Assembly: GCA_009779855.1 (NCBI GenBank)
Contig: WRBC01000005.1
Location: 43,115 to 107,114, forward strand
DNA length: 64,000 nt
Direction: 5' to 3'
DNA from: Coriobacteriia bacterium
Lineage (GTDB): Bacteria; Actinomycetota; Coriobacteriia; WRKU01; WQUG01
Shown: positions 2,818-57,442 of the stretch, one piece after another
Layout of the letters: each line of letters starts with the position of its first letter
Position numbering within the stretch: position 1 is the first letter of the stretch
Translations under genes and position numbers: made by a program
Notes under the pieces: generated by a model
Database searches by the model: none
Told to the model about the DNA's origin: nothing
What the model saw: only the letters and a program-made list of their open reading frames with translations

Positions 2818-4741
2818 TGAACGCATCCAAAAAGAGCGCAGGCAAGGTTCGCAACACAGCAATGTAAATGCAGGTGCTGCTATTGCTGCCCCTCCTGCAA
2901 AGGTTGATGACTTCAAAGGAACCCTGAAAAAGTTCATAGCATTATTTAAAGAGGACAAACTACATCTTTTCTTGGCTGTGCTGCTGGCAGTGCTAGGTGT
3001 TTTAGCAACGGTGCTTGGGCCCCGAATACTTGCAGAGGCAACTAATGAATTAGCAGACTTTGTAACGGCGACATATGCTGCTTTGCAGGATGCGACTTTA
3101 AATGCGTCGGCAGTTGCCCCAGCGATTGATTTTACTTTCATTGCAAAGATACTTGCAGTAGTGGGTGTGCTCTACTTGTTGGGTGCTGCATTTAGTTATA
3201 TCCAGCAACGCCTAATCATTCATGTAACGCAGAAACTTATTCATGGGCTGCGTCAGAAAGCATCTGAAAAACTAGACAGATTACCCCTACGTTATTTTGA
3301 TCGCAAGCCTTACGGCGATACCTTGTCACGCATTACCAATGATATTGATTTGATTAATTCCAATCTGCAGCAGGTCATGACGCAAACTTTGACCTCACTG
3401 ATCATGATTGTCGGAATATTAGTCATGATGTTTGTCATCAATTGGATGCTGGCTCTGATTTCATTAATTGCCCTACCAGTGACCATGCTGCTTACTGCTT
3501 GGGTTGCGCCAAAGGCCCAGCGCTTCTTTGGTCGTCAGCAGGCTCAACTGGGTGAACTTAACGGCCAGATTGAAGAAAACTTTAGTGGGCACAATGTTAT
3601 TAAGGCCTTTAATCGCGAGGAAGCCTCTGTAGAGCGCTTTCGTAAGACAAATGAAAAGCTGTATGGTAGTGCATGGAAGGCTCAGTTTTTAACAAGCATC
3701 CTGATGCCGCTGTTTACCTTAATCACCAATATCCAGTATGTGCTTATAGTAGCGATTGCTGCTATATTGACGCGTCCAGAAGTTATGTTCCTAGGCACGA
3801 ATATAGGTGGGCTGCAGATCGGTCTGATCTTGGCGTTTATCCAGTATGTCCACCAATTCCAGCAACCATTGGTTACTACAGCACAGATGGCGAATCTAAT
3901 CCAGGGGACTATTGCTGCAGCAGAACGTGTCTTTGAACTGCTGGAAGAGGACGAAGAGCGTCCAGACGATGAAGAGTCCGCAAAGCATGACAGTCGCCCT
4001 CGTGGTGCGGTAAGTCTAGACAACGTTAACTTTGACTATGTGCCTGACGAACCCTTGATTCGCGATTGGAGCCTAGAAGTAAGTCCTGGTGAAATGGTTG
4101 CAATTGTGGGACCGACTGGTGCAGGCAAGACAACGGTGGTCAATTTACTTATGCGCTTCTATGACGCAGATAGTGGCAAGATTTGTATTGATGGCATTGA
4201 TACTCAAGAAATGACACGTGCTGGTGCCCGTGGATTATTTGGTATGGTGCTACAAGATACGTGGCTCTTTAGCGGAACTATCTATGAAAATATTGCCTAC
4301 GGTCGCGAAGATGCGAGTCGCGAAGAAATCATAGAGGCGGCTAAGACAGCTTTTGCCGATCACTTCATACGTACTTTGCCTGATGGTTACGATACAGTCC
4401 TGCAAGAGGACGCTCAGAACCTGTCAGTTGGACAGCGTCAGTTACTAACAATTGCACGTGCCGTATTGCGTGACGCGCCTATAATGATTCTAGATGAAGC
4501 CACAAGTAGTGTTGACACGAGGACCGAAAAACTGATTCAGGCAGCAATGGCACGTCTTATGCAGGGTCGAACGAGCTTTGTCATAGCTCACCGCCTATCA
4601 ACTATTCGCGACGCAGATAAGATTGTAGTAATGCAGCAGGGCCGTATTGTCGAGACAGGAACTCACGATAATCTACTAAAAAGCGGAGGCTTTTACGCAG
4701 AATTATACCTGTCACAATTCGCTGAAGACGAAGATTCGTAA
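2798..4741 (+). CDS. ABC exporter permease/ATPase fusion, subunit 2 with a canonical catalytic site
   Basis: TMD plus NBD: Walker A 'GPTGAGKTT', Walker B 'IMILDEATSSVD', H-loop 'AHRLSTI'. The signature is degenerate ('LSVGQRQ'). This matches the LmrCD/BmrCD-type asymmetric heterodimer pattern. Confidence 0.9.
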   Translation: MANSANDERIQKERRQGSQHSNVNAGAAIAAPPAKVDDFKGTLKKFIALFKEDKLHLFLAVLLAVLGVLATVLGPRILAEATNELADFVTATYAALQDATLNASAVAPAIDFTFIAKILAVVGVLYLLGAAFSYIQQRLIIHVTQKLIHGLRQKASEKLDRLPLRYFDRKPYGDTLSRITNDIDLINSNLQQVMTQTLTSLIMIVGILVMMFVINWMLALISLIALPVTMLLTAWVAPKAQRFFGRQQAQLGELNGQIEENFSGHNVIKAFNREEASVERFRKTNEKLYGSAWKAQFLTSILMPLFTLITNIQYVLIVAIAAILTRPEVMFLGTNIGGLQIGLILAFIQYVHQFQQPLVTTAQMANLIQGTIAAAERVFELLEEDEERPDDEESAKHDSRPRGAVSLDNVNFDYVPDEPLIRDWSLEVSPGEMVAIVGPTGAGKTTVVNLLMRFYDADSGKICIDGIDTQEMTRAGARGLFGMVLQDTWLFSGTIYENIAYGREDASREEIIEAAKTAFADHFIRTLPDGYDTVLQEDAQNLSVGQRQLLTIARAVLRDAPIMILDEATSSVDTRTEKLIQAAMARLMQGRTSFVIAHRLSTIRDADKIVVMQQGRIVETGTHDNLLKSGGFYAELYLSQFAEDEDS

Positions 4742-34842: not shown

Positions 34843-34918
34843 GCGCGATTAGCTCAGCTGGGAGAGCACTTGCCCGACACGCAAGGGGTCACTGGTTCAA
34901 GTCCAGTATCGCGCACCA
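34843..34918 (+). tRNA. tRNA, most likely tRNA-Val (anticodon GAC); 76 nt including encoded CCA
   Basis: Acceptor stem GCGCGAT/ATCGCGC, D-arm 'AGCTCAGCTGGGAGAGC', T-arm 'GGTTCAAGTCC', 3' ACCA. Anticodon stem CTTGC/GCAAG with loop CCGACAC. Confidence 0.8.
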
Positions 34919-44253: not shown

Positions 44254-45453
44254 ATGAGTAGTAGAACTAAACAAAGAAGAAACGCGAGGAAGAAGATGAT
44301 TAAGGCTATGAAAGGTGCCCGCGCTAAACTTTCTTTTGCGCTCGCACTTGCACTGGTCATGGGTCTTACAGCCGCTGGTACGGCTTTTGCAGATCCAGCC
44401 CCAATCTACGTTAATCCAAACAGTTATGCAGAGATCACAAAGGTTCTCGAGAGACCCATGGGGGTACACCTGCCAGAGCCAGCAGATGCAGGATTCAATT
44501 TCTCTGCAACACCGCAGGCTTTTGATGGGGGCACGATTCCCTCAGGATTAAGCTTTCCAGACATTGCATCAATCTCTCTAAATACCAATGATGGGGTTCT
44601 TCCTGATGTTTGGGAACGCACTTATCCTGAGAATTGGGGAGTCGACTCCATCGAAAGATCTGTTAGATTTGACCTCGCTGACTTGACCTTCAGTCGTGCG
44701 GGACAGTATGACTATTTGGTAGAACAGCAGCCCAATAGTCACGAGGACATCACTGACTCGAGCGAGAGGTATATATTGCGCCTAACCGTTGGGCAAAACA
44801 ACGCCATCAGCAATGTGCAATTCTTTGACTTCCGTGCGGGTAGCATGGGCGCTGCAATTGATTCTCCTCGCTTTATAAGCACCTATACGCCTGTGGGATC
44901 GCTTAGCATTACGAGTGAAGTAGCGGGCGCTGATGCTGATGAACATAAGGACTTCGATTTTAGAATCAGGCTAACCAGCACATCTTTTGCAGATTTTGAT
45001 GGCACAGTGGACGCGACGATTACTAATGCCGCAGGTTCGGGAGCATCAAGCCACACTATCACCTACAATCAGTGGTATAGCTTTACCTTGCAGCATGGCT
45101 GGAAAATGGAAATCAGCAATCTGCCTTTGGGTACTGCCTTCATGGTAAATGAGCCAGCTCCAACAGATTACATTCCTTCAGTTGATGTTACCGTAGATGG
45201 GAATATCTCCTTTGTCTATTCTGTAGGTGACCTAGATAGAGCAATCACCTCAGAATCAGCTTTGGCACAGGCTTTCTTGGTAGAAGAGCGTGTAGTGGGT
45301 GCGGGAGAAAACCTCGTAGCCTTTAGTCACTACATGCCTGATACTCCAGAACCGCACATCGTGCAGGACAATCTGGTCTGGTTTGCTGTTGCAGGTATAG
45401 GGGCAGTATTCTTCATAGCCCTTGTAGTGTTTATGCGTAAGCGTCTTAATTAA
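44254..45453 (+). CDS. Secreted cell-surface protein with a C-terminal TM anchor (no LPXTG)
   Basis: Signal peptide 'LSFALALALVMGLTAAGTAFA'. C-terminal 'VWFAVAGIGAVFFIALVVFMRKRLN'. Preceded by a 170-nt AT-rich leader. Confidence 0.6.
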   Translation: MSSRTKQRRNARKKMIKAMKGARAKLSFALALALVMGLTAAGTAFADPAPIYVNPNSYAEITKVLERPMGVHLPEPADAGFNFSATPQAFDGGTIPSGLSFPDIASISLNTNDGVLPDVWERTYPENWGVDSIERSVRFDLADLTFSRAGQYDYLVEQQPNSHEDITDSSERYILRLTVGQNNAISNVQFFDFRAGSMGAAIDSPRFISTYTPVGSLSITSEVAGADADEHKDFDFRIRLTSTSFADFDGTVDATITNAAGSGASSHTITYNQWYSFTLQHGWKMEISNLPLGTAFMVNEPAPTDYIPSVDVTVDGNISFVYSVGDLDRAITSESALAQAFLVEERVVGAGENLVAFSHYMPDTPEPHIVQDNLVWFAVAGIGAVFFIALVVFMRKRLN

Positions 45454-46967: not shown

Positions 46968-47732
46968 ATGCAAGTGGCCGCAAACCCACAAGTAGGAGGC
47001 AGCAATATGTCCTTAGGCTCAAACAATCAATCTTCTGCAGATGAATCTTCTTCAAGTCAGCACAGTTCCCCCAACCCTTCTTCGGATGGACTTCGTTTAG
47101 GCGAACATTTTCTAAACGAGCCTTCTCCAGGTGACGGCAAGCTTTCACGAAAGAAAATTGCGCTTACGGCGGTAGCTGTAAGCGTTGTTGTTTTGCTGCT
47201 TTCGGCTTGTTCTGTTTTTGCACTATATTTCCTTTGGCATGGGCCAGGTATGATGCCCTGGGATAGTTATCGCTGGCATGACGATCCTCAAAGCAACATC
47301 GTGCTTATAGAAGAGTCTGATTCAGCGGCGATAGATTTCATTGTTGGTGAATATAAGGTGACAGAAGTTCAGTATATTTTTGAGAATCAAGAGTTCGATT
47401 CTGACTATGAAGGTCATGAGTGGATACTCCAAAGGTATGTGCTCAATTCTGATTCAAGCTTTGAAAGAATTTTCCCCGATTCCTTTGTAGAGAAGGGCAC
47501 CTTTACTATAGAAAATATTTCTGACGATGAGCTGGCTGCCAGAGGCGACCGAGGAATCAGTCGTTTTTTCGATGAGCGCTCAGAAGCAGAAACCTACCGT
47601 ATGATTTTTAGCATTGAGGAAGGTCCTCGTGACTTTCATGAAGAGATAATCGTGTCCCATGCAGGGGATGAAGACATAGCTTTCTATTTCCCTGAATTTG
47701 GGGATATTGAAATGCTCATTAGAGCAAGGTAG
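46968..47732 (+). CDS. Hypothetical membrane-anchored protein with an S-rich N-terminus
   Basis: 'SSADESSSSQHSSPNPSS' low complexity, TM 'IALTAVAVSVVVLLLSACSVFALYF', acidic extracellular domain. Confidence 0.45.
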   Translation: MQVAANPQVGGSNMSLGSNNQSSADESSSSQHSSPNPSSDGLRLGEHFLNEPSPGDGKLSRKKIALTAVAVSVVVLLLSACSVFALYFLWHGPGMMPWDSYRWHDDPQSNIVLIEESDSAAIDFIVGEYKVTEVQYIFENQEFDSDYEGHEWILQRYVLNSDSSFERIFPDSFVEKGTFTIENISDDELAARGDRGISRFFDERSEAETYRMIFSIEEGPRDFHEEIIVSHAGDEDIAFYFPEFGDIEMLIRAR

Positions 47733-47789
47733 TAGACTTCCACAGCGCCTTTTTTGTTCATGCTTCTGCTACACTGTTTTAATACTCTA

Positions 47790-48015
47790 TTGGTTCTATG
47801 TGCTGCGGACCGGCACAAAGACGAAGAGGGAAGCTGGTGAAAATCCAGCGCAACCCCCGTTGCCGTAATAGGGAACGAGGATTAAGCACAGGCCACTGGC
47901 GCGGATTGCGCTGGGAAGGCGCTTGTCCTCATTTGACCCTTAAGCCGGAAGACCTGTCAAAGAGCCCTAAAAAGTATCTGTCTTTCGGCGGGAAAGACCG
48001 GATCTATCTTTTTAA
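47790..48015 (+). promoter_or_regulatory. Cobalamin (B12) riboswitch with a putative attenuator hairpin
   Basis: Core elements readable directly: 'AGAGGGAAG', 'GGTGAAAATCC', 'GCCACTG', 'GGGAAGGC', and B12-box 'AAGCCGGAAGACCTG'. Then a 7-bp hairpin GTCTTTC-GGCGG-GAAAGAC (47980-47998) and a T-run (48008-48012). Ends about 50 nt before the ATG at 48066. Confidence 0.85.
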
Positions 48016-48065
48016 GTAGATAATCCGGACATAAGACTCCGTCGCAAAGAGCGAGGAGGAAACAG

Positions 48066-51000
48066 ATGCACGTCAGATCAAACATAAGCCTTAGGCTTGC
48101 ACTAGTCTTAGCGATATTTGCATTTTCGTTATTAGTGATGGTTCCCGTAGCGTGGGCGCAAGAGGTTACTGCTACTTTGCGCGTAGAATTTATTGAAGAT
48201 ACGAGGCTTGCTCCTATGGAAGTTACGATGGAGCACAGACCTCTCAGTGACTTTGGTATAAACATGAGCGATCCGGGCTTTGTTACTCCTATCCACCTTC
48301 TTGCAGAAGGACTTGAGCAGCGTTACGGTGCAGGATCTGCGGCAAGCATGATTAATGCTCCTGGAATGCTCATGACTATCGATGATTCTTTCGGCTCGAT
48401 TGCAGGTGAGCCCAATGTATGGTGGATGTTTGCCATCAACCAATCGATGCCTGTGTCTACAGATACTGGATGGGGATATGCCTCAAATCAGTACCGTGTT
48501 CAAAACGGCGATGATATTGACTTCCTGGGCATGTGGGGAGGTCAGTGGGGTGTAGCGTCACCCTTTATAGGCTTCTTTGGTAGCCAGACTTACCATACTA
48601 CTGTTGGGCAGCCCTTAGAGGTTGAATTGCTTGGGCTTGATGGCTTTGATGACTTTGCTGTGAGACCTTCGCGCATACTTGAGGGCGCAGAAATCCTTGT
48701 AGACCCTGCAGGCAGTACACGTGCTGGCGCGACAACAGCTAGCGGCACTTTTATTGATGAAGAGGGTCTGGCAGAACTCACTTTCGACGAAGCAGGTACA
48801 TTTCTGCTTAGTGCAAGGCGACCTATCGCAAGCCCCAGCAGCCCTAGTGGTACGGTCAGTGACATTACTCGTCCCTTTGCGGTAGTAACAGTAAGCGAGT
48901 CATCTGGTCAGCCTAACTGGACTCAAGAGGGTGCCCCAGCAGCAAGTATAGATTTCAGCATTGAAGAGCTCACCAATCTAGTTCCAGGTGTTGAGTACAG
49001 CATTGACAGCACAGGCAGCACTGACAGTGCGCGTATCGTGGCTAATGCGGACGGAACAATTCCTCTAAGTGAAGCCTGGTTTGGACAAGGCATAGATATT
49101 GTACGGCTGGGTATTGCAGCAAATCATACTCTTGATAGTGACCCTCAGAACTTAGCAGTTCCTTCTCGTTCGTCTGCCCCCACGGGTCTAGGCTCAATTG
49201 ACGCGACGGGTACTGTTGAAAGTGCTACGGGCGTGATTACAGGGGTAGGTTCTGCTATGGAGTGGCGTCTACGTACGGGAACTACATGGACGGCTGTCTC
49301 AGGTGCAACGGTAGAGAATCTTATTCCAGGCACTTATTATGTTCGCTTCCAGTCAGAACCAGGCTCTTTCGCTAGTGCATCCGCAGCAGTAATCGTGTCC
49401 CTAGATCAGCAGTACTGGTCTCAAGCAAGCACGCCAACAGCAGCAGTAGATTTTGAACTTGAGGTACTTACGGGACTCACCCCAGAAGCTGCCTACCTTA
49501 TTGCTGGACAACATAACATGAGTGATTCAAGTGGCGCGATTCTTTTGGACGCTGCGTGGCTTGGTCAGAATATTAGTATCGTAAAGTTAGGCAATCCTGC
49601 CAACTTTACCCTTGATAGCGATGTCCAGTCTCTTGCGGTCCCGCTACGTCCGCATGCTCCTACAGGGCTAAGCCCAGCTAATGCAACAGGCACAAATAGT
49701 GACGGCTCTATTGCTGGTGTGGCCTTCACTATGGAGTGGCGCTTAAGCACTTCACATGCCTGGACAGCTGTTACAGGCGCGACCATAGAAAATCTTGTAG
49801 CAGGCACCTACCATGTTCGCTTCCGGGCTACATCAGGGTCCTTTGCAAGTGCCTATGCCACAGTAACGGTATCTGTGACAGGAGAGCTGCCCAGTGTCAG
49901 GTGGAGTTCTTTTCGTGGCAATGCCTTTAATTTGGCAAGAGTCGATTCAGGTACTCCAGCTACAAACCAACTAGGTAGAACACTTTGGAGCCAGCCAGTT
50001 AGTGATGGGTCATCAGCCCTGTCCCCAGTAAAGGTGGGTGACGCCGTTTACATTGCAGGTGGGTCGACTTTGTGGAAACTTGATTCTGCGGGAAGCATAG
50101 TTGACACAGTGCCTCTTGAAGCTCCCATAGGGCAGGCGGCCTTCCTTGCGGCAGGCAGTGGTAAAATTTTCGTACCCATTGGTGCTGGACAAGTGCAGGC
50201 TTTTGATGCACACACTCTGCAGCCACTTTGGACATCTGAGCCTTTTGCAAGCAATTGGCAGGCTTTAGGTGCACTGACGTATAAAGATGGTTACCTCTAT
50301 GGTTCTGCAAGTTTTGACCTCTTTATGCGCCATAGCGAAGGGGCCTTCTTCTGTCTTGATGCAAGCACCGGTGAAGAAGTATGGACCCACTCTTCCTCTT
50401 CTGGTGCAGCCCAGACAGGATTCTATTGGGCGGGCGCAGCAGTGACAGATCATGTAGTACTTTTTGCAGGTGATGAGGGCATATTGGTTTCACACACTGC
50501 GGGAACACAGACGGCACGAGCAACGGGAATCGTTGACACGGCCGTGCTTGCTGGTGGCGTGCGTAGCCCCGTACTGTTTGTTGAAAATGAGGTGTCTGCT
50601 GATGGCAGCGGTGTTGCTTTTGCTTCAACACGAGACGGTTTTGTGTCACGTGTCGTGGTTGCTGCTGACGGCAGCCTAGGTCCAGTCCTGTCGGCCCCCT
50701 TAAGCGGAGAGATATCCACGGCGACACCGGTAATATACCGAAATCGTCTTTATGTTGTATCAGGGGAACTGCTTGATGGTGGCTACGTAGATGTCTTTAG
50801 CGCAACAACGCTAGAGCGCTTGCGTAGTATTGAGCTGCCCGGATTTAGCCAGTCTTCTCCACTTCTTGCTACTGCTGGCTCAAATAGTGCTAATGGCTAT
50901 GAAGTGTCATTGTTTGTGGCGCTTAATGATATGCAAGACGATGTTGTCCGTATTATTGATTCAGAGCGTGTTGGTGCTGAAATGCGCGCAGAAACCTTTC

Positions 51001-51596
51001 TAAGTCCAGGGGGATCGTTTGCACTGAATTCTGTAAGCGCCTGTGATCAGGGTAGACTCTATTATGTTGATGGACGTGGCAATTTCACTGCAATTACCGC
51101 TGCGAACCAGCAGTTGTCACCAGGCAATGGCGGTAACGGCAATAACGGTAACGACAATAACAACAATGGTGACGCTGGTGGAGGCACGGATGGCAGCGGT
51201 AATAATGGTGGTGCTAACGATGACATCTACTCACCTCAAGAGGAGGACGAGACTACCTCTGAAGAATCTGGTTCTGAAGATGCCACAGGGATTCCAGGCG
51301 ATGGATCAAGGGCAGCAGGCGAAGGTCCAAAAACTGCTGATGTAAGTGATGCTATGCGTTGGCTTTTCTTTGCGGCATTAGCGCTGACAGCAGGGTTTGC
51401 AGTGATTGCAGCTAAAATAGCTGACCGAAAAAAAGAGAAGCTGAAAAAGCTAGAAAAATTCAAAGAAGACGCTAGCCAGCACGAAGACAGCAAGGCCACT
51501 GTAGCGACGACACCGGTGGCAGCAGGTCAAGCAGAACATAGCGAGGGTGCTGACTTGCAGAGTCCGTACCAAAATAAACAGGAGCAGCGCGTATGA
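48066..51596 (+). CDS. Large cell-surface protein: signal peptide, DUF4430-like (transcobalamin-like) domain, two tandem ~160-aa repeats, PQQ/BamB-like beta-propeller, N/G-rich linker and C-terminal TM anchor. Putative cobalamin-capture protein.
   Basis: Signal peptide 'LALVLAIFAFSLLVMVPVAWA'. N-terminal 'ATLRVEFIED...NVWWMFAINQ...YRVQNGDDIDF' resembles the DUF4430 domain of the downstream lipoprotein. Propeller blades such as 'VYIAGGSTLWKLD' and 'GQVQAFDAHTLQPLW'. C-terminal 'WLFFAALALTAGFAVIAAKIADRKK'. First gene after the B12 riboswitch. Confidence 0.8.
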   Translation: MHVRSNISLRLALVLAIFAFSLLVMVPVAWAQEVTATLRVEFIEDTRLAPMEVTMEHRPLSDFGINMSDPGFVTPIHLLAEGLEQRYGAGSAASMINAPGMLMTIDDSFGSIAGEPNVWWMFAINQSMPVSTDTGWGYASNQYRVQNGDDIDFLGMWGGQWGVASPFIGFFGSQTYHTTVGQPLEVELLGLDGFDDFAVRPSRILEGAEILVDPAGSTRAGATTASGTFIDEEGLAELTFDEAGTFLLSARRPIASPSSPSGTVSDITRPFAVVTVSESSGQPNWTQEGAPAASIDFSIEELTNLVPGVEYSIDSTGSTDSARIVANADGTIPLSEAWFGQGIDIVRLGIAANHTLDSDPQNLAVPSRSSAPTGLGSIDATGTVESATGVITGVGSAMEWRLRTGTTWTAVSGATVENLIPGTYYVRFQSEPGSFASASAAVIVSLDQQYWSQASTPTAAVDFELEVLTGLTPEAAYLIAGQHNMSDSSGAILLDAAWLGQNISIVKLGNPANFTLDSDVQSLAVPLRPHAPTGLSPANATGTNSDGSIAGVAFTMEWRLSTSHAWTAVTGATIENLVAGTYHVRFRATSGSFASAYATVTVSVTGELPSVRWSSFRGNAFNLARVDSGTPATNQLGRTLWSQPVSDGSSALSPVKVGDAVYIAGGSTLWKLDSAGSIVDTVPLEAPIGQAAFLAAGSGKIFVPIGAGQVQAFDAHTLQPLWTSEPFASNWQALGALTYKDGYLYGSASFDLFMRHSEGAFFCLDASTGEEVWTHSSSSGAAQTGFYWAGAAVTDHVVLFAGDEGILVSHTAGTQTARATGIVDTAVLAGGVRSPVLFVENEVSADGSGVAFASTRDGFVSRVVVAADGSLGPVLSAPLSGEISTATPVIYRNRLYVVSGELLDGGYVDVFSATTLERLRSIELPGFSQSSPLLATAGSNSANGYEVSLFVALNDMQDDVVRIIDSERVGAEMRAETFLSPGGSFALNSVSACDQGRLYYVDGRGNFTAITAANQQLSPGNGGNGNNGNDNNNNGDAGGGTDGSGNNGGANDDIYSPQEEDETTSEESGSEDATGIPGDGSRAAGEGPKTADVSDAMRWLFFAALALTAGFAVIAAKIADRKKEKLKKLEKFKEDASQHEDSKATVATTPVAAGQAEHSEGADLQSPYQNKQEQRV
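48914..49885 (+). repeat. Intragenic tandem duplication (two ~480-nt / ~160-aa repeat units) inside the large surface-protein gene
   Basis: Units NWTQEGAPAASIDFSIEELTNL...AAVIVS and YWSQASTPTAAVDFELEVLTGL...ATVTVS align at roughly 50% identity. The antisense artefact ORFs 49145-49333 and 49565-49807 are near-copies of each other for the same reason. Confidence 0.85.
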
Positions 51597-52540
51597 AAAG
51601 GTGCGCATTGAGAGTTGCCATCTGTCTACTTGCAGCGCTATTTATTCTAGTGCTTGCTGGCTGCAGCCGACCTGAGCACACAGGACCAAAAGCAAGTAAT
51701 ACTTCTGCCAGCACAAACATTGTCACGAGTGGTCCAAGCAAGTCATCGGCTGAAGGAACATCCACTGCCACAGATACCTCATTGGATGATGAGCAAGATC
51801 AGAACGAAGATGCTGATGCAGAAGCAATAGGCCAAACAGGTGACGATTCTGAAGGTTCTGCTGAGGATACTGAAGCACAGGGACAAAATGCAGGAAGCAG
51901 TTCTGGTGGCAGTTCCCGCAATTCTAATTCTGGCAGTAATGGGTCAGGTTCCTCCACAGCAAGTTCTGGGGGCCAGGGTACAGGTGCAGGCACAAATTCT
52001 AGCGGCGGTAATGTCTCTACACAAAATAGTAACCGAAATACAGGACAAAGCTCTGGGGGAAGTTCAAACCAAAACGCGAACCGAAATTCCGGACAGGGTT
52101 CAGCAGGAAATTCTAGTCAAGGCAACACGGGTACCGGGCAGTCACAATCTGGCGGATCTAACCAGAGTAATACCCCTAGGACTATTACCGTGTCGATTGA
52201 AATCGAGGCACGTCTGGCTCACGCGCAAAATCCAGCAGCGCTATCAGGCATCGCTAATAATGGGATAATTCTTGCACGTAGGAATGTGACCTTACAGGAA
52301 GGTGCAACAGTACGCCAAGCCTTAGATGCAACAGGAATACGTGTTAATGCGCGCGGAGCATATATTGCAGGGATTGGTGGTCTATCTGAAGGGGACATAG
52401 GTCCCCGCAGTGGCTGGATGTTTAGCGTAAACGGGCAATTTCCCGGAAGTTCTGCATCTGCTCAAAGACTTAACGCAGGGGATGTAATCGCGTGGCGCTA
52501 TACCCTGAATGGGGGAGCAGACCTCGGTGCCAGCTGGTAG
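51593..52540 (+). CDS. Lipoprotein with a long S/G/N/Q-rich disordered linker and a C-terminal DUF4430-like (transcobalamin-like) domain
   Basis: Lipobox 'LVLAGC'. About 150 aa of low complexity. C-terminal 'ITVSIEIEARL...RRNVTLQEGATVRQALDATGI...RSGWMFSVNGQFPGSSASAQRLNAGDVIAWRY'. ATGA overlap with the upstream gene. Confidence 0.8.
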   Translation: MKRCALRVAICLLAALFILVLAGCSRPEHTGPKASNTSASTNIVTSGPSKSSAEGTSTATDTSLDDEQDQNEDADAEAIGQTGDDSEGSAEDTEAQGQNAGSSSGGSSRNSNSGSNGSGSSTASSGGQGTGAGTNSSGGNVSTQNSNRNTGQSSGGSSNQNANRNSGQGSAGNSSQGNTGTGQSQSGGSNQSNTPRTITVSIEIEARLAHAQNPAALSGIANNGIILARRNVTLQEGATVRQALDATGIRVNARGAYIAGIGGLSEGDIGPRSGWMFSVNGQFPGSSASAQRLNAGDVIAWRYTLNGGADLGASW

Positions 52541-52595
52541 AACGTACAGAAGGCATAGGCTAAAACGGCGCTTCTTGTTGTTGCATCCAGGTGTT

Positions 52596-53483
52596 ATGAT
52601 GGCCTTTTTTGTTGGTGTCATTGTGGTGACCTTGCTTAGCTATCACCCATTAATCCTGGGACTTTCTTTTGTGTTTGCGGCAGCAAGTGTAATCTACTAT
52701 CTAGGAGTAAAGGTACTGGGACGGTCATTAATGTGGTTAGGACCGATGACTGCTATTGTTGTAGTTTTTAATACGGTATTTAATCGTCGCGGTGCGACAG
52801 AACTTTTCACTACCGAACACCTTCAGATGACTTTTACCTTAGAGAGTCTACTTTTTGGCCTAAGTATTGCACTTATGCTGACTGCAGTTATTCTCTGGTT
52901 TCGCCTTTATCAAGAACTTATGACAAGTGATCGCTTTCTTTATCTTTTCGCACCTATTGCCCCAACTTTCGCCCTAAGTGTCACCATGGTGCAGCGCTGG
53001 ATTCCTCTAACGAAGTATCGTTGGCAGCAGATTAGAGATGCTCATAAACCCTCAAGATTTGCGGCTATTCGATCTTTGACACACTCATTGTCAGCACTCA
53101 TGTCATGGTCTATGGAGGATGCTATACAGGCAGCAGACTCGATGCAGGCTCGTGGATACAGTAAAAGTAGTTCTAGCAATTACGGCAAGAATAATCAAGG
53201 CAAAGGCGCTCATGATACAAGGAAACGACGCAGAAGTAGCTTTCGATACTTTCCTTTCACCACTTATGATGCCATCGCACTTACTGTAGTCATCTTACTT
53301 GCTGTCACAGCGGGACTAGCCGTCTTTTTCTCAGCTAGAGAGCTCGCCTTTTTCCCCGTTTATAGGGGCGTTGAATATCTTTCTGCCACTGCCCTAATAG
53401 CTGTAACCCTGCTTATGTTTTTTCCACTGCTGCTTGAAGGTGGTGAGCAGCTAAGATGGCGATTATCCGCGCAGAAAACCTAG
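52596..53483 (+). CDS. ecfT: ECF transporter transmembrane (T) component, EcfT/CbiQ family
   Basis: About 5 TM. Coupling-helix-like 'DSMQARGYS' (the A-R-G motif typical of EcfT). An in-frame upstream extension to 52509 has no TM and is probably not translated. Overlaps ecfA by 28 nt. Confidence 0.7.
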   Translation: MMAFFVGVIVVTLLSYHPLILGLSFVFAAASVIYYLGVKVLGRSLMWLGPMTAIVVVFNTVFNRRGATELFTTEHLQMTFTLESLLFGLSIALMLTAVILWFRLYQELMTSDRFLYLFAPIAPTFALSVTMVQRWIPLTKYRWQQIRDAHKPSRFAAIRSLTHSLSALMSWSMEDAIQAADSMQARGYSKSSSSNYGKNNQGKGAHDTRKRRRSSFRYFPFTTYDAIALTVVILLAVTAGLAVFFSARELAFFPVYRGVEYLSATALIAVTLLMFFPLLLEGGEQLRWRLSAQKT

Positions 53484-55198
53484 GTTTTACCTATCCAGAA
53501 GCTCAAAATTCAACCTTTGATGAGGTTAATTTTCAAATCAGTGCAGGGGAGTTTGTCCTATTATGTGGACGCACAGGTAGCGGCAAGACGACCTTGTTGC
53601 GACAGCTTGTCCCGGCTCTTGCCCCTCATGGTCAGTCTACAGGTGAACTTGAAGTAAAGGGAAGTGTAGGCTTTGTTCAACAGACCCCCGATAATCAAAT
53701 TGTTACAGACATTGTTTTTCATGAACTTGCTTTTGCTTTAGAAAATCAAGGTCTGCCAACCCAGACCATCAGGCGGAAAGTGGCGGAGATCGCCAGCTAC
53801 TTCGGCCTGGAGTATTTACTAGAAGCAAAGACACATTCTTTGTCAGGCGGACAGAAGCAAATCCTTAACCTAGCAGCAACCCTTGTAGCCGAGCCAGACA
53901 TCCTTGTCCTTGATGAGCCAACCAGTGAACTTGACCCTATAGCTGCACAGAACTTTTTGCGTCACCTGGCACGTATTAATCGTGAGCTGGGAACTACGGT
54001 AGTATGCTGTGAGCATCGCCTAGATGAAGTTCTTGACCTTTGTGACAGGGTCTTGTTGATGAGCAAGGCAAAGGGACAGGATTTAGGAAAGCAGGACATA
54101 GAGGGACGAAACATCGAGGAACAAAACTCCAAAGAACAGGACGTTCAGTCGCATACAGCGCAGCAATTCGTCCAGAGTTGTCTGGGAGTCAATAGGAACT
54201 TTGCTCTTTACTTGCCAGAACCCACCCGTATTGCTCTTGCTGCTGCCAGTGCAAAGAGGACTCCTGCAGAGCCTGTAGGATCCGCCGTAAAGTCCATAAA
54301 GCTCACAGAATGGCCTCTTGATGTAAAAAGTGGGCGCACTTGGTTGATAGAAAACCTTGCTGTGTTTCCTCATGCGCAGACGAAGCCTTCTGTGCAATCA
54401 TCATCTTTCTCTTCGTCATCCCTGTCAGGGCCCCCTGCAATCACTATCCGGGATCTTTGTTTTCGCTATGAAAGGGAGGAGCCTTTCATAATAAGATATC
54501 TGAACGCTACGTTTAGTCGGGGAAATGTGCATGGCATAGTAGGCGGAAACGCTTCAGGAAAGTCTACTTTGCTTGGGCTTATCTCAGGTATACACCGATC
54601 CCAGCTAGGCAAGGTCCGCATAGACAGAAACTTAAGATTGGCAGCACTGCCTCAAAATCCTAAGGCGAATTTTGTTTGTGATACCGTGCGCGAAGATCTT
54701 CATGACTCAAATACAGAAATAGATGCAGAGGCAGTGCTACAGGTGGCACGTGACATGGATATTACTCATCTATTAAACAGTCATCCCTATGACCTTTCTG
54801 GGGGAGAAACCCAAAAGGCGGTTCTTGCAAAGTTGCTACTAAAAGATCCCGATATCCTCTTACTGGATGAACCAACTAAGGGTCTGGACGCACAGGCAAA
54901 ACAGGAAATTGGACGTATCTTTGACCAATTGGCTCAGCAGGGGAAAACGCTCATTATCGTTACTCACGATCTTTCTTTTGCAGCAGAGCATACGCAGACA
55001 TGCTCTCTTTTAGCAAATGGTGAGCTTATAGCCCAGGACCAAACTCACAATTTCTTTCTTGGGAATAGCTTCTACACTACGCCGACAAATCGTATGTCCC
55101 GAGGCATTGTTGATGACTGTGTAATCGCTGATGATATTCTTAGGGCCCTGAAGCTTGAAGAGTCTCAGCAAAAGGCTCAAGAAGCTCCCCTGTTATGA
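53456..55198 (+). CDS. ecfA: Fused ECF transporter ATPase (EcfA-EcfA', two NBDs; CbiO family)
   Basis: NBD1: 'GRTGSGKTT', 'LSGGQKQIL', 'LVLDEPTSELD'. NBD2: 'GGNASGKST', 'LSGGETQKA', 'LLLDEPTKGLD'. Confidence 0.9.
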   Translation: MAIIRAENLGFTYPEAQNSTFDEVNFQISAGEFVLLCGRTGSGKTTLLRQLVPALAPHGQSTGELEVKGSVGFVQQTPDNQIVTDIVFHELAFALENQGLPTQTIRRKVAEIASYFGLEYLLEAKTHSLSGGQKQILNLAATLVAEPDILVLDEPTSELDPIAAQNFLRHLARINRELGTTVVCCEHRLDEVLDLCDRVLLMSKAKGQDLGKQDIEGRNIEEQNSKEQDVQSHTAQQFVQSCLGVNRNFALYLPEPTRIALAAASAKRTPAEPVGSAVKSIKLTEWPLDVKSGRTWLIENLAVFPHAQTKPSVQSSSFSSSSLSGPPAITIRDLCFRYEREEPFIIRYLNATFSRGNVHGIVGGNASGKSTLLGLISGIHRSQLGKVRIDRNLRLAALPQNPKANFVCDTVREDLHDSNTEIDAEAVLQVARDMDITHLLNSHPYDLSGGETQKAVLAKLLLKDPDILLLDEPTKGLDAQAKQEIGRIFDQLAQQGKTLIIVTHDLSFAAEHTQTCSLLANGELIAQDQTHNFFLGNSFYTTPTNRMSRGIVDDCVIADDILRALKLEESQQKAQEAPLL

Positions 55199-55863
55199 AC
55201 CTTCTTATCTCGTCAGTCGTAGTAGGTATACCTCTTATTGTGCTGGTTTTTGGGATTGAGCGCGTGAAGCCTCGCCCCCGCGACCTTATGCCTGTGATAG
55301 TTTTAACGGCCCTTGCTATATTGGGGCGTGTGGCTGCCATGCCTATTCCTAATTTTCAGCCAGCAACAGCACTCATTATTCTAGCGGGTTTCTTTTTTGG
55401 TAGACACGCAGGGTTACTTTCGGGCATGTTGGTCGCGCTAGTTTCGAATATATTTATGGGACAGGGCCCCTGGACTCCTTGGCAGATGCTTACCTGGGGG
55501 CTTGTGGGTTACGGAGCAGGACTTTTAGGGGACAGAGTAAGCTGGGCCCAGCCTCACGAAGTTGAGCCCAGAGAACCTGAGAAGAACAGATACACAAAAC
55601 GCAGGAGGATCATTTTGCTTGCGGTTGTAATCATCTACGGTGTGGTGGCATCACTACTCTTTGGGATGATTATGGACGTACAGTTCTTTGTTGCTTATAT
55701 CTGGGAATCAGGATGGCCAGGTCTTGTGGCTACATGGATGATGGGTCTGCCCATGAATGTTGCTCACGCGGCTTCAACATGCATCTTCTTGGTGCTTACC
55801 CTTATTCCCTGGGGAAAGAAGTTTCATCGTCTAAAGACGAAGTACGGAATCCGAAGCATTTAG
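55195..55863 (+). CDS. Putative ECF substrate-specific (S) component; by operon context, a cobalamin-specific S unit
   Basis: 222 aa and about 6 TM. 'LVSNIFMGQGPWTPWQMLTWGLVGYGAGLL' looks like an S component. ATGA overlap with ecfA. Last gene of the riboswitch-led operon. Confidence 0.6.
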   Translation: MNLLISSVVVGIPLIVLVFGIERVKPRPRDLMPVIVLTALAILGRVAAMPIPNFQPATALIILAGFFFGRHAGLLSGMLVALVSNIFMGQGPWTPWQMLTWGLVGYGAGLLGDRVSWAQPHEVEPREPEKNRYTKRRRIILLAVVIIYGVVASLLFGMIMDVQFFVAYIWESGWPGLVATWMMGLPMNVAHAASTCIFLVLTLIPWGKKFHRLKTKYGIRSI

Positions 55864-55907: not shown

Positions 55908-56612
55908 ATGAGTGATGAGCAAGCAAAGTCTCGTATTGGGGTCTATTTGGACTGTGACACCAGTCATCCTAAAGAACATCAGCATAATTTGAATATGATG
56001 GAAGCGCTTAGACTCTGTACGGATGCAGACGGACAGTCGTATGAAATCTATGTTTACAGTGCAAAAAAGGTGTGGAAAAACTATTGCAAAGAGCACTCAT
56101 TGACCTATCGTCCTTTTCCCACAAGTGGTGCTTCGAATCATATTGGCAAAATGCTGTTTGGGAAGTACATTGATAGCCCAAAGCCGCCTGAATGGGTGGG
56201 GGAGATGCTCAACCGCAAGGCGCATGATTTTAAGGTAGAGACTATGATTTTCTCTGCCCCAACGACATTAGTACAACAGATGCAGCTGCCAACGGTAGTG
56301 GTTATGCTCGATCTAGCAGCGAACGGCGTTGGTGATTATGACGCGCAGTGGTATAAAGATCTTTATCAATCGATACTAAAGAATGCGACAGCCGTTATTG
56401 TGGATCCAACAGAGGGAACTGATTATTTGAACGAAGCACTGGCTGAAAATCCGGCAGATGTAAAGATGCTTTCGCTTGATGCCAGCTCTAATGTACTGGC
56501 TTTTAGTCTGGCTACTGTGCTGCGCTCTGTGGCGGTGTCCTCACCTGCAGAAGAGTCCAATCCTGTATCAGAGCCCGAATTTACGACAGAATCTAAAGTA
56601 GGGGGAGAATAA
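55908..56612 (+). CDS. Hypothetical cytoplasmic protein
   Basis: 234 aa, no recognised motifs. RBS AAGGAG. Its stop overlaps the punA start. Confidence 0.45.
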   Translation: MSDEQAKSRIGVYLDCDTSHPKEHQHNLNMMEALRLCTDADGQSYEIYVYSAKKVWKNYCKEHSLTYRPFPTSGASNHIGKMLFGKYIDSPKPPEWVGEMLNRKAHDFKVETMIFSAPTTLVQQMQLPTVVVMLDLAANGVGDYDAQWYKDLYQSILKNATAVIVDPTEGTDYLNEALAENPADVKMLSLDASSNVLAFSLATVLRSVAVSSPAEESNPVSEPEFTTESKVGGE

Positions 56613-57442
56613 TGGACGTACTTACAAAAATCAAACTTGTTGAAGCTAAACTGAAGGCTATATTAGATAAAAATGGTGTCGTTATGCCAGAGGTTGCCAT
56701 TGTATTAGGAAGCGGACTCTCTGATGTTGCAGACAATGTTATAGATCCACTTGTTATTTCCTATGATGAACTTGCAGACTTTCCTGTGGCTACAGCTCCA
56801 GGTCACAAGGGGCGTTTTGTTGTGGGTAATCTGGGGGATACTCCTGTGATAATAATGCAGGGACGCATCCACTACTATGAGGGTTATCCAATGACAGATG
56901 TTGTTCTTCCCGTGCGCGTGCTTGCTCGCCTAGGTGTTAAGAATTTTGTTTTGACCAACGCTGTAGGTGGCCTAGCAGACGGAATGCGCGAGGGTGACCT
57001 AATGCTCATTACTGACCATATTTCAACCTTTGTTCCTTCTCCGCTTATTGGTCCTAATATTGATGAGCTTGGCTTGCGCTTTACCGACATGACTCATGTT
57101 TATGATGTAGGTTTACAGAATGTTTTCCGCGAAGCGGCAGATAAGCTGGATATTCGCCTGCTCGAAGGGGTATATGCTCAGTTCACGGGACCCCAATTTG
57201 AGACTCCGACAGAGATTCAATTACTGAAAGGCTTGGGTATTGATGTTGTTGGCATGAGTACCGTTGTAGAGGCCATTGCACTACGCCATATGGATATTCG
57301 TGTCAGTGGGGTTAGCTGCATCACAAATCTGGCAGCGGGCATTAGTGACGAGCTACTATGCGGCAGTGACGTGGTAGATGTTGGGACCGAAGTCGGACCA
57401 ACTGTGACGGCTCTAATCTCTGAAGCTGTCAGGAATTTTTAG
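56612..57442 (+). CDS. punA: Purine nucleoside phosphorylase (trimeric PNP-I/PunA type)
   Basis: 'GRIHYYEGY' and 'VGMSTVVEAI' (PNP family-1 signatures). Confidence 0.9.
   Translation: MDVLTKIKLVEAKLKAILDKNGVVMPEVAIVLGSGLSDVADNVIDPLVISYDELADFPVATAPGHKGRFVVGNLGDTPVIIMQGRIHYYEGYPMTDVVLPVRVLARLGVKNFVLTNAVGGLADGMREGDLMLITDHISTFVPSPLIGPNIDELGLRFTDMTHVYDVGLQNVFREAADKLDIRLLEGVYAQFTGPQFETPTEIQLLKGLGIDVVGMSTVVEAIALRHMDIRVSGVSCITNLAAGISDELLCGSDVVDVGTEVGPTVTALISEAVRNF

Follow-up and report, generated by a model that had tools for sequence, protein, structure and literature searches.

A 64,000-nucleotide stretch from a Coriobacteriia bacterium (phylum Actinomycetota; GenBank assembly GCA_009779855.1, contig WRBC01000005.1, positions 43,115 to 107,114 of the forward strand), referred to here as the window, carries at positions 47774-55863 one unit composed of a cobalamin (vitamin B12) riboswitch and five co-oriented genes. 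Gene 1 encodes a large surface protein, gene 2 a lipoprotein, and genes 3 to 5 the predicted components of an energy-coupling factor (ECF) transporter (Table 1). A preliminary description, made from the sequence alone, had listed five genes with overlapping or closely spaced junctions, and the coordinates of the open reading frames (ORFs) bore this out, including ATGA overlaps at 51593 and 55195 and a 28-nt overlap at 53456. The 55-nt gap that it also reported, however, exists only if gene 3 is started at the downstream ATG at 52596. On a near-identical 174-kb metagenomic contig (L081), independent gene calls gave proteins of 1171, 315, 318, 580, and 222 aa, and all four junctions were overlapping, by 4, 14, 28, and 4 nt, with 14 nt in place of the supposed gap. 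According to these calls, gene 3 probably starts at 52527 and encodes a protein of 318 aa. The overlap at every junction is strong evidence for a single transcription unit.

Table 1 Features of the riboswitch-controlled operon in the window and selected features of related loci (the latter given as locus:positions).
Feature	Position	Strand	Basis or remark
Cobalamin riboswitch aptamer, RF00174	47774-47975	+	cmscan
B12 box GCCGGAAGAC	47944-47953	+	Within the aptamer
Expression platform	47976-48065	+	RNA folding with and without the 3' half of the aptamer
Hairpin GUCUUUC-GGCGG-GAAAGAC	47980-47998	+	Conserved; 5' arm can pair alternatively with the B12 box
CUCC...GGAG hairpin	48037-48058	+	Covers the Shine-Dalgarno sequence GGAGG (48055)
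AUCUGU/ACAGAU helix	47976-47981 and 48062-48067	+	Reaches the start codon
Gene 1 ORF	48066-51596	+	1176-aa membrane-anchored surface protein
Gene 1, signal peptide	48066-48158	+	First part of the protein
Gene 1, divergent DUF4430/SLBB-like domain	~48189-48545	+	hhalign
Gene 1, immunoglobulin (Ig)/DUF4198-like domain	~48558-48920	+	
Gene 1, two ~160-aa repeats	48900-49403 and 49398-49877	+	53% identical; protein-level comparison
Gene 1, PQQ/BamB-type beta-propeller	~49863-51095	+	PQQ_2, 39.6-45.2 bits
Gene 1, low-complexity stalk	51096-51365	+	
Gene 1, C-terminal transmembrane anchor	51372-51440	+	Followed by a charged tail
Gene 2 ORF	51593-52540	+	315-aa lipoprotein, C-terminal DUF4430
Gene 2, signal peptide with lipobox LAGC, Cys24	51593-51664	+	Read from the sequence
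Gene 2, S/G/T/N-rich linker, ~180 aa	51668-52207	+	Composition
Gene 2, C-terminal DUF4430 domain	52301-52504	+	Pfam PF14478
Gene 3 ORF	52509-53483	+	Predicted divergent EcfT (T component)
Gene 4 ORF	53456-55198	+	Fused EcfA-EcfA' ATPase, 580 aa, two ATP-binding cassettes
Gene 5 ORF	55195-55863	+	Predicted CbrT-type S component, 222 aa
Fusions of AA' and S in related loci	L011:8289-10862, L037:10858-13446, L058:10684-13539, L074:10816-13311		Also in L026, L045, L047, and L059
Leucine-rich repeat (LRR) surface proteins in related loci	L032:1964-5326, L039:3519-5762, L044:3636-5825		
Stand-alone secreted propellers in related loci	L035:7860-9320, L048:7449-9041, L050:7629-9137		Some without DUF4430

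Rfam models run over the entire window assigned the leader to RF00174 with 108.5 bits (gathering score, 31.5 bits; E = 3.1e-26) over the full model (positions 1-189), and all four cobalamin-riboswitch motifs named in the preliminary description were present in the window sequence. The riboswitch it had placed at 47790-48015 was thus genuine, although that range was shifted slightly relative to the true span of 47774-47975 and ran into the expression platform. Leaders were aligned for the window and the related loci L001, L004, and L048. The B12 box is complementary to GUCUUUCGGC (47980-47989), and both elements were invariant in these four leaders, as was the GUCUUUC/GAAAGAC hairpin; the AUCUGU/ACAGAU helix was kept in three of the four. 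We take the G-rich loop of the conserved hairpin to be a candidate for a kissing interaction with the C-rich L5 loop, which the ligand would stabilise. The leader had also been suspected to contain an attenuator hairpin followed by a T-run. Of these, the hairpin was real, whereas the T-run, which begins 10 nt past the stem, was not conserved across the four leaders, and an intrinsic terminator was rejected on these grounds together with the lack of any plus-strand call in the leader by a terminator scan. From the predicted folds, we infer that control is probably exerted on translation and not by intrinsic termination.

The transporter genes were recognised as an EcfT, a fused EcfAA', and an S component, in agreement with the preliminary description. 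Gene 4 matched PF00005 twice (153.6 bits). Its NCBIfam matches, TIGR04520 (ECF_ATPase_1, E = 1e-84) and TIGR04521 (E = 2.8e-77), were both below the equivalog cutoffs, as expected of a fused, divergent protein. Gene 3 searched alone gave no Pfam match, including CbiQ/PF02361, even at an E-value of 10. A profile of its family matched three solved EcfT chains (5d3m/6fnp; E = 1.8e-11, 9.5e-8, and 1.1e-7), PF02361 was found in 5 of 32 homologs, a 99%-identical protein is named EcfT by NCBI, and a conserved A-R-G-Y motif was invariant in the family alignment. The gene 3 product is predicted to be a divergent EcfT.

In Pfam, gene 5 matched ECF-ribofla_trS (39.1 bits) and DUF6580 (37.5 bits). When searched alone against the Protein Data Bank (PDB), its sole significant match was 6fnp_A, the CbrT chain (E = 4.2e-11), and a profile built from 21 family members matched CbrT with an E-value of 2.9e-22 (residues 6-178 of 182). 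The next S components matched by this profile were 4hzu_S (1.8e-4) and RibU (8e-3), so that CbrT scored about 18 orders of magnitude better. Gene 5 is assigned by homology to the CbrT (vitamin B12/cobinamide) family of S components, and its transport function is predicted from this assignment. No match to CbiM or CbiN was found in any of the five proteins with Pfam or NCBIfam, and genes 3 to 5 are predicted to form a complete, dedicated ECF module.

Upstream of this module, the gene 2 product carries an export signal, recognised by sequence reading as an N-terminal hydrophobic segment with the lipobox LAGC, and ends in a DUF4430 domain that scored 53.9 bits against PF14478 (cutoff, 23.8 bits; residues 237-304, profile positions 1-71 of 72). 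In vertebrate transcobalamins, DUF4430 forms the C-terminal domain (PMC4350170), and the beta domain of mammalian transcobalamin, intrinsic factor, and haptocorrin belongs to this same Pfam family. The DUF4430 profile aligned end to end, albeit weakly (E = 0.14), with the beta domain of human transcobalamin (5no0).

Both extracytoplasmic proteins had been described as DUF4430-like. Pfam upheld this for gene 2 and not for gene 1, which scored 14.8 bits; for gene 1 the resemblance was recovered by profile comparison and through its relatives. An alignment of the gene 1 N-terminal module (N-module) with four locus homologs, compared by hhalign with an alignment of 37 DUF4430 domains, gave a probability of 96.3% (E = 2e-9, 91 columns), and the hallmark motif W-M-x-x-x-N...G-D-x-I lined up between the two. 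Among ten scanned relatives of the N-module, three matched Pfam DUF4430 (P0066, 34.0 bits; P0048, 23.4 bits; P0074, 21.1 bits). Because of the profile-profile match and these relatives, and not because of its own Pfam score, we accept that the N-terminus of gene 1 holds a divergent SLBB/DUF4430 domain, with an Ig/DUF4198-like domain after it. An exhaustive search of 1.84 billion representatives for the N-module returned 102 clusters only, in which it was nearly always N-terminal in larger secreted proteins. PDB searches with the single sequence or a small profile gave nothing significant for the N-module or for the gene 2 domain. In all, the Pfam families proposed in the preliminary description were matched by gene 2 (DUF4430), gene 4 (PF00005, twice), and gene 5 (ECF S family), and not by gene 1 (DUF4430) or gene 3 (CbiQ).

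The remainder of gene 1 is built from repeats, a propeller, and a stalk. The propeller family profile matched BamB, designed PQQ-type propellers, and PQQ dehydrogenases (66 matches). A BtuG-like propeller was considered and rejected, since Pfam gave PQQ_2, PQQ, and DUF5074 without DUF4465, and no BtuG was found among the 66 profile matches. Gene 1 had no prenyltransferase or SQHop_cyclase match in Pfam, that is, no alpha/alpha toroid. The two repeats (residues 279-446 and 445-604) matched the NCBIfam MAG6410 lipoprotein model in its C-terminal region and had weak matches to Ig-like families. They look like a recent stalk-lengthening insertion because the related protein P0042 lacks them and has its N-module joined straight to the propeller. 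No tandem repeat was detected for them at the DNA level, and they were visible at the protein level only. A separate 15-nt tandem repeat, GGCAATAACGGTAAC, is present in 2.6 copies at 51123-51161, encodes part of the G/N-rich stalk, and could be variable in length.

To describe the distribution of this arrangement, a species-representative genome collection was searched with an alignment of the T component. As a result, 401 relatives were found, mostly in Clostridia, and the best 80 loci were analysed; these belonged mainly to Clostridia, together with termite-gut Coriobacteriia and one metagenome-assembled genome of Actinomycetes. A DUF4430 ORF homologous to gene 2 lay beside the ECF genes, just upstream of T, in 62 of the 80 loci and was missing there in the other 18; a CbrT-like S component was present in 63. 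The usual order was DUF4430 lipoprotein, T, AA', and S. L001 and L004, which are the closest relatives, had the full set of five genes and also the riboswitch.

Rfam detected a same-strand cobalamin riboswitch upstream in six of the nine nearest loci (L001, L004, L005, L006, L008, and L048), and in two of the three negative ones the upstream sequence is too short for a test. With an nhmmer model of the Rfam-confirmed aptamers, 56 matches were obtained, all on the operon strand, and a riboswitch was placed upstream in 45 of the 67 loci with enough upstream sequence. The conservation of gene order downstream of B12 riboswitches, which the preliminary description had proposed as a check, was evident in these counts. 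A recheck with Rfam confirmed six of seven nhmmer-negative loci as negative. A weak cobalamin riboswitch in L065 (8511-8675, 35.0 bits) was missed by nhmmer, which makes 45 of 67 a slight underestimate. The same locus carries an S-adenosylmethionine (SAM) riboswitch upstream on the opposite strand (4236-4339). Downstream of the 49 strongest nhmmer matches (E below 1e-8), the next gene encoded a small DUF4430 protein in 9 cases, T in 5, a large DUF4430 surface protein in 5, and a propeller protein in 9. Two to three operon-strand cobalamin riboswitches per locus were found in L009, L042, L063, L069, L012, and L010; in L069, one precedes a large DUF4430 protein with S-layer homology (SLH) domains (3520) and another the DUF4430 lipoprotein-ECF core (8984). 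B12 regulation of such modules is widespread, and the unit in the window is one form of it.

The accessory proteins were more diverse than this core. Large upstream proteins in other loci combined DUF4430 with SLH, cadherin-like, Big_3, or GLUG domains, and other accessory genes encoded proteins with weak alpha/alpha-toroid matches (L008, L020, and L057), LRR proteins, or stand-alone PQQ propellers. PQQ/BamB propellers of the gene 1 type stood beside the DUF4430-ECF module in 16 of the 80 loci and came first after the riboswitch in 9; some of the stand-alone secreted propellers lacked DUF4430 (Table 1). In several Clostridia loci, large surface proteins with BspA-type LRRs and Listeria-Bacteroides repeats were located between the riboswitch and the DUF4430-ECF genes. 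Furthermore, eight related loci had one ORF of 830-950 aa that joined AA' to a CbrT-like S component, and the four fusions checked with Pfam each contained two ABC_tran domains and an ECF S-component domain. Such a covalent link between A, A', and S seems difficult to square with models that have the S component leave the ECF module.

These findings support a reading of the operon as a B12-controlled system for corrinoid import with capture proteins. More specifically, it probably encodes a cobalamin-repressed, dedicated corrinoid importer of the ECF-CbrT type, in which two surface SLBB/DUF4430 proteins would capture the substrate and deliver it to the membrane. Direct corrinoid binding by both DUF4430 proteins, as proposed in the preliminary description, is suggested by their family membership. 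We infer the following order of hand-over and regulation. At low intracellular cobalamin, the leader would permit expression. The membrane-anchored gene 1 protein would use its Ig-like repeats and stalk to hold the DUF4430-like domain and the propeller away from the membrane, where these two could capture corrinoids in or beyond the cell wall. The gene 2 lipoprotein, with the second DUF4430 domain on a flexible tether of ~180 residues, may receive the corrinoid from gene 1 or capture it independently near the membrane, and would present it to the CbrT-like S component, from which the ECF module would import it using ATP. When cobalamin is abundant, the ligand would lock the aptamer, freeing the GUCUUUC/GAAAGAC hairpin and the helices over the Shine-Dalgarno sequence and AUG; in this way translation, and probably also the stability of the mRNA, would be reduced.

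Several observations weigh against this reading. In transcobalamin, cobalamin is sandwiched between an alpha/alpha toroid and the beta domain, the toroid providing half of the binding site, and a Pfam scan of the five proteins found no alpha/alpha-toroid partner in the operon; the absence of a toroid also sets it apart from the mammalian B12 carriers. A literature search returned no paper showing a bacterial DUF4430 protein binding a corrinoid. The N-terminal domain of gene 1 fell below the PF14478 cutoff (14.8 versus 23.8 bits, E = 0.039), aligning with profile positions 33-68 only, and its AlphaFold2 (AF2) model, made with one usable homolog, had a pLDDT of 33 and was discarded. The AF2 model of the gene 2 domain was of moderate quality only (pLDDT 64.6). 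In Foldseek, its top matches were the bacterial DUF4430 structure 3u7z and the beta domains of rat and human transcobalamin, haptocorrin, and intrinsic factor; these matches were weak (E ~1e-2, TM-score ~0.45) and shared with unrelated beta-grasp proteins of the MoaD/ThiS type. The modelled fold is consistent with the family assignment and is no independent proof of it. No riboswitch was detectable in 22 of the 67 testable loci. Finally, the homologous genes lsa1836-1840 of Lactobacillus sakei have been linked experimentally to the uptake of heme and not of B12 (bioRxiv 10.1101/864751).

The last point raises the question of the substrate. An importer of heme or another non-corrin tetrapyrrole, as proposed for L. 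sakei, would make the riboswitch a case of cross-regulation and not a sign of substrate identity. We regard this as very improbable. Of the 67 testable loci, 45 had a cobalamin riboswitch on the operon strand, many of them two to three copies, and this linkage counts against heme because riboswitches normally govern genes that make or import their own ligand. The nearest solved relative of gene 5, by a wide margin, is likewise the B12 transporter CbrT. The L. sakei genes encode, in order, transcobalamin-alpha-like (TC-alpha-like) and TC-beta-like proteins, T, fused AA', and S, and although they were automatically annotated as a cobalamin transporter, they have been tied experimentally to heme uptake, with extracellular heme scavenging by the transcobalamin-like proteins proposed by the authors (bioRxiv 10.1101/864751). 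By its published description, this cluster shares with the window five genes and the core order TC-beta-like, T, fused AA', S. It differs in its first gene, a TC-alpha-like alpha/alpha toroid in the place of the DUF4430-like/Ig/propeller protein, in its assignment to heme, and in that the paper reports no riboswitch, where the window has RF00174; nor was B12 assayed there (bioRxiv 10.1101/864751). Transport of cobalt or nickel by a CbiMNQO-type ECF system is extremely unlikely. Such systems are also common under B12 riboswitches, for example in C. difficile (PMC11477304), and gene 4 obtains good scores with the NCBIfam models of cobalt-transporter ATPases. These ATPase matches are, however, generic and below the equivalog cutoffs, CbiM and CbiN are missing, and gene 5 matches CbrT as well as riboflavin-type and general ECF S families.

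The role of the DUF4430 proteins was considered separately. If the ECF module imports corrinoids and the DUF4430 proteins are not carriers, they might tether to the wall, or the propeller might strip B12 from binding proteins of competitors or the host. The heterogeneous accessory repertoire, with SLH, cadherin-like, LRR, and GLUG domains as well as propellers, suggests such roles in surface architecture. Moreover, 18 of the 80 loci do without a DUF4430 ORF by the ECF genes, and ECF transporters are classically thought to work without a soluble binding protein. Burroughs et al. suggested that the fused propeller, Ig, and similar domains may tether the proteins to polysaccharide (PMC1796856). 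However, DUF4430 is the single element that all this accessory variety has in common, it shares homology with the transcobalamin domain that contacts cobalamin, and in most loci a small DUF4430 lipoprotein lies directly upstream of T with overlapping stop and start codons. A role other than carriage is thus unlikely.

The proposed capture and import of corrinoids has a clear precedent. Burroughs, Balaji, Iyer and Aravind (Biol Direct 2:4, 2007; PMC1796856) reported on SLBB proteins of bacteria that resemble transcobalamin, bear signal peptides or wall anchors, and can be fused to Ig and beta-propeller domains; often the same operon encoded a further SLBB paralog. It also held genes for a CbiO-like ATPase and a membrane protein of the CbiQ kind, and scavenging of B12 or its precursors was predicted (PMC1796856). 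The surface SLBB pair, the fusion to Ig and propeller domains, and the CbiO/CbiQ-like genes are all found in the operon of the window. Riboswitches and the S component were not mentioned in the 2007 study, and its clade comprised mainly low-GC Gram-positive bacteria, planctomycetes, and some archaea, whereas the present operon comes from Coriobacteriia (Actinomycetota), and its large protein is anchored by a C-terminal transmembrane segment and has an SLBB domain that is very divergent. The architecture and the B12-scavenging hypothesis are not new, having been published in 2007 from gene context (PMC1796856). What is new here is an actinobacterial member of the kind of gene cluster predicted then, and no new concept.

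The transporter itself can be compared with ECF-CbrT of Lactobacillus delbrueckii (PDB 6FNP), a demonstrated ATP-driven importer of cobalamin and cobinamide (PMC5997447). Gene 5 is assigned to the same S family (profile E = 2.9e-22) and gene 3 to the same EcfT fold family. In L. delbrueckii, CbrT uses a shared group II module and is encoded in an nrdJ-cbrS-cbrT-pduO cluster without accessory proteins (PMC5997447), whereas the present operon has a dedicated T, a fused AA', and two extracytoplasmic proteins. In Bacteroides, the loci of the surface B12-binding lipoproteins BtuG, BtuH, and BtuJ resemble the window in being controlled by B12 riboswitches and in encoding several surface accessory proteins upstream of the transporter (PMC10404256, PMC8941943, PMC13616437). 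They differ in their outer membrane, TonB-dependent transporter, and BtuCDF, in place of which the present operon has an ECF transporter and no outer membrane. The Bacteroides relay is analogous to the function proposed here, but its proteins belong to unrelated families: BtuG is a beta-propeller, and gene 1 also contains a propeller, but of the unrelated PQQ/BamB type.

This parallel allows a further, rather unlikely reading, in which the PQQ/BamB-type propeller of gene 1 would be a corrinoid-binding or corrinoid-extracting module convergent with BtuG. The operon might then encode an extracellular relay of a monoderm bacterium with three stations, running from the wall-spanning propeller/DUF4430 protein to the tethered DUF4430 lipoprotein and on to the CbrT-type S component, with the Isd heme relay and the Bacteroides Btu relay as its analogues. 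Of all parts of the system, the PQQ-type propeller that recurs under B12 regulation is the least understood and holds the most promise.

The preliminary description regarded the surface B12-capture proteins of monoderm bacteria as essentially uncharacterised, in agreement with a September 2026 review, in which extracellular cobamide capture in Firmicutes was called "entirely uncharacterized" (PMC13616437). The operon and about 400 related loci tie a transcobalamin-like lipoprotein to a CbrT-type ECF importer under a B12 riboswitch, and this linkage makes the scavenging hypothesis of 2007 directly testable. Such a test would also clarify whether the heme assignment of the L. sakei homolog is general. 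What the window contributes is a clean example from Actinomycetota, along with a compact set of constructs for testing.

The genes flanking the operon showed no link to B12. Upstream lie genes for a DUF7601 surface protein, an M48 peptidase, and an uncharacterised protein, and downstream those for another uncharacterised protein, purine nucleoside phosphorylase (PNP), a zinc-type alcohol dehydrogenase, and DeoC. The adjoining ORFs at 46968-47732 (254 aa) and 55908-56612 (234 aa) gave no Pfam match. The genes at 55908-57442 were considered as part of the operon and rejected, as their synteny was seen only in the closest relative L001, across a 1.5-kb gap, and was absent elsewhere. In L001, the ORF corresponding to 55908-56612 is kept beside PNP but apart from the ECF genes. 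The DUF7601 protein, encoded at 44254-45453 three genes upstream of the operon, has 399 aa with a signal peptide and a C-terminal transmembrane segment, and nothing evident connects it with the operon. A plus-strand tRNA gene at 34843-34915 (64.3 bits) is unrelated to the operon.

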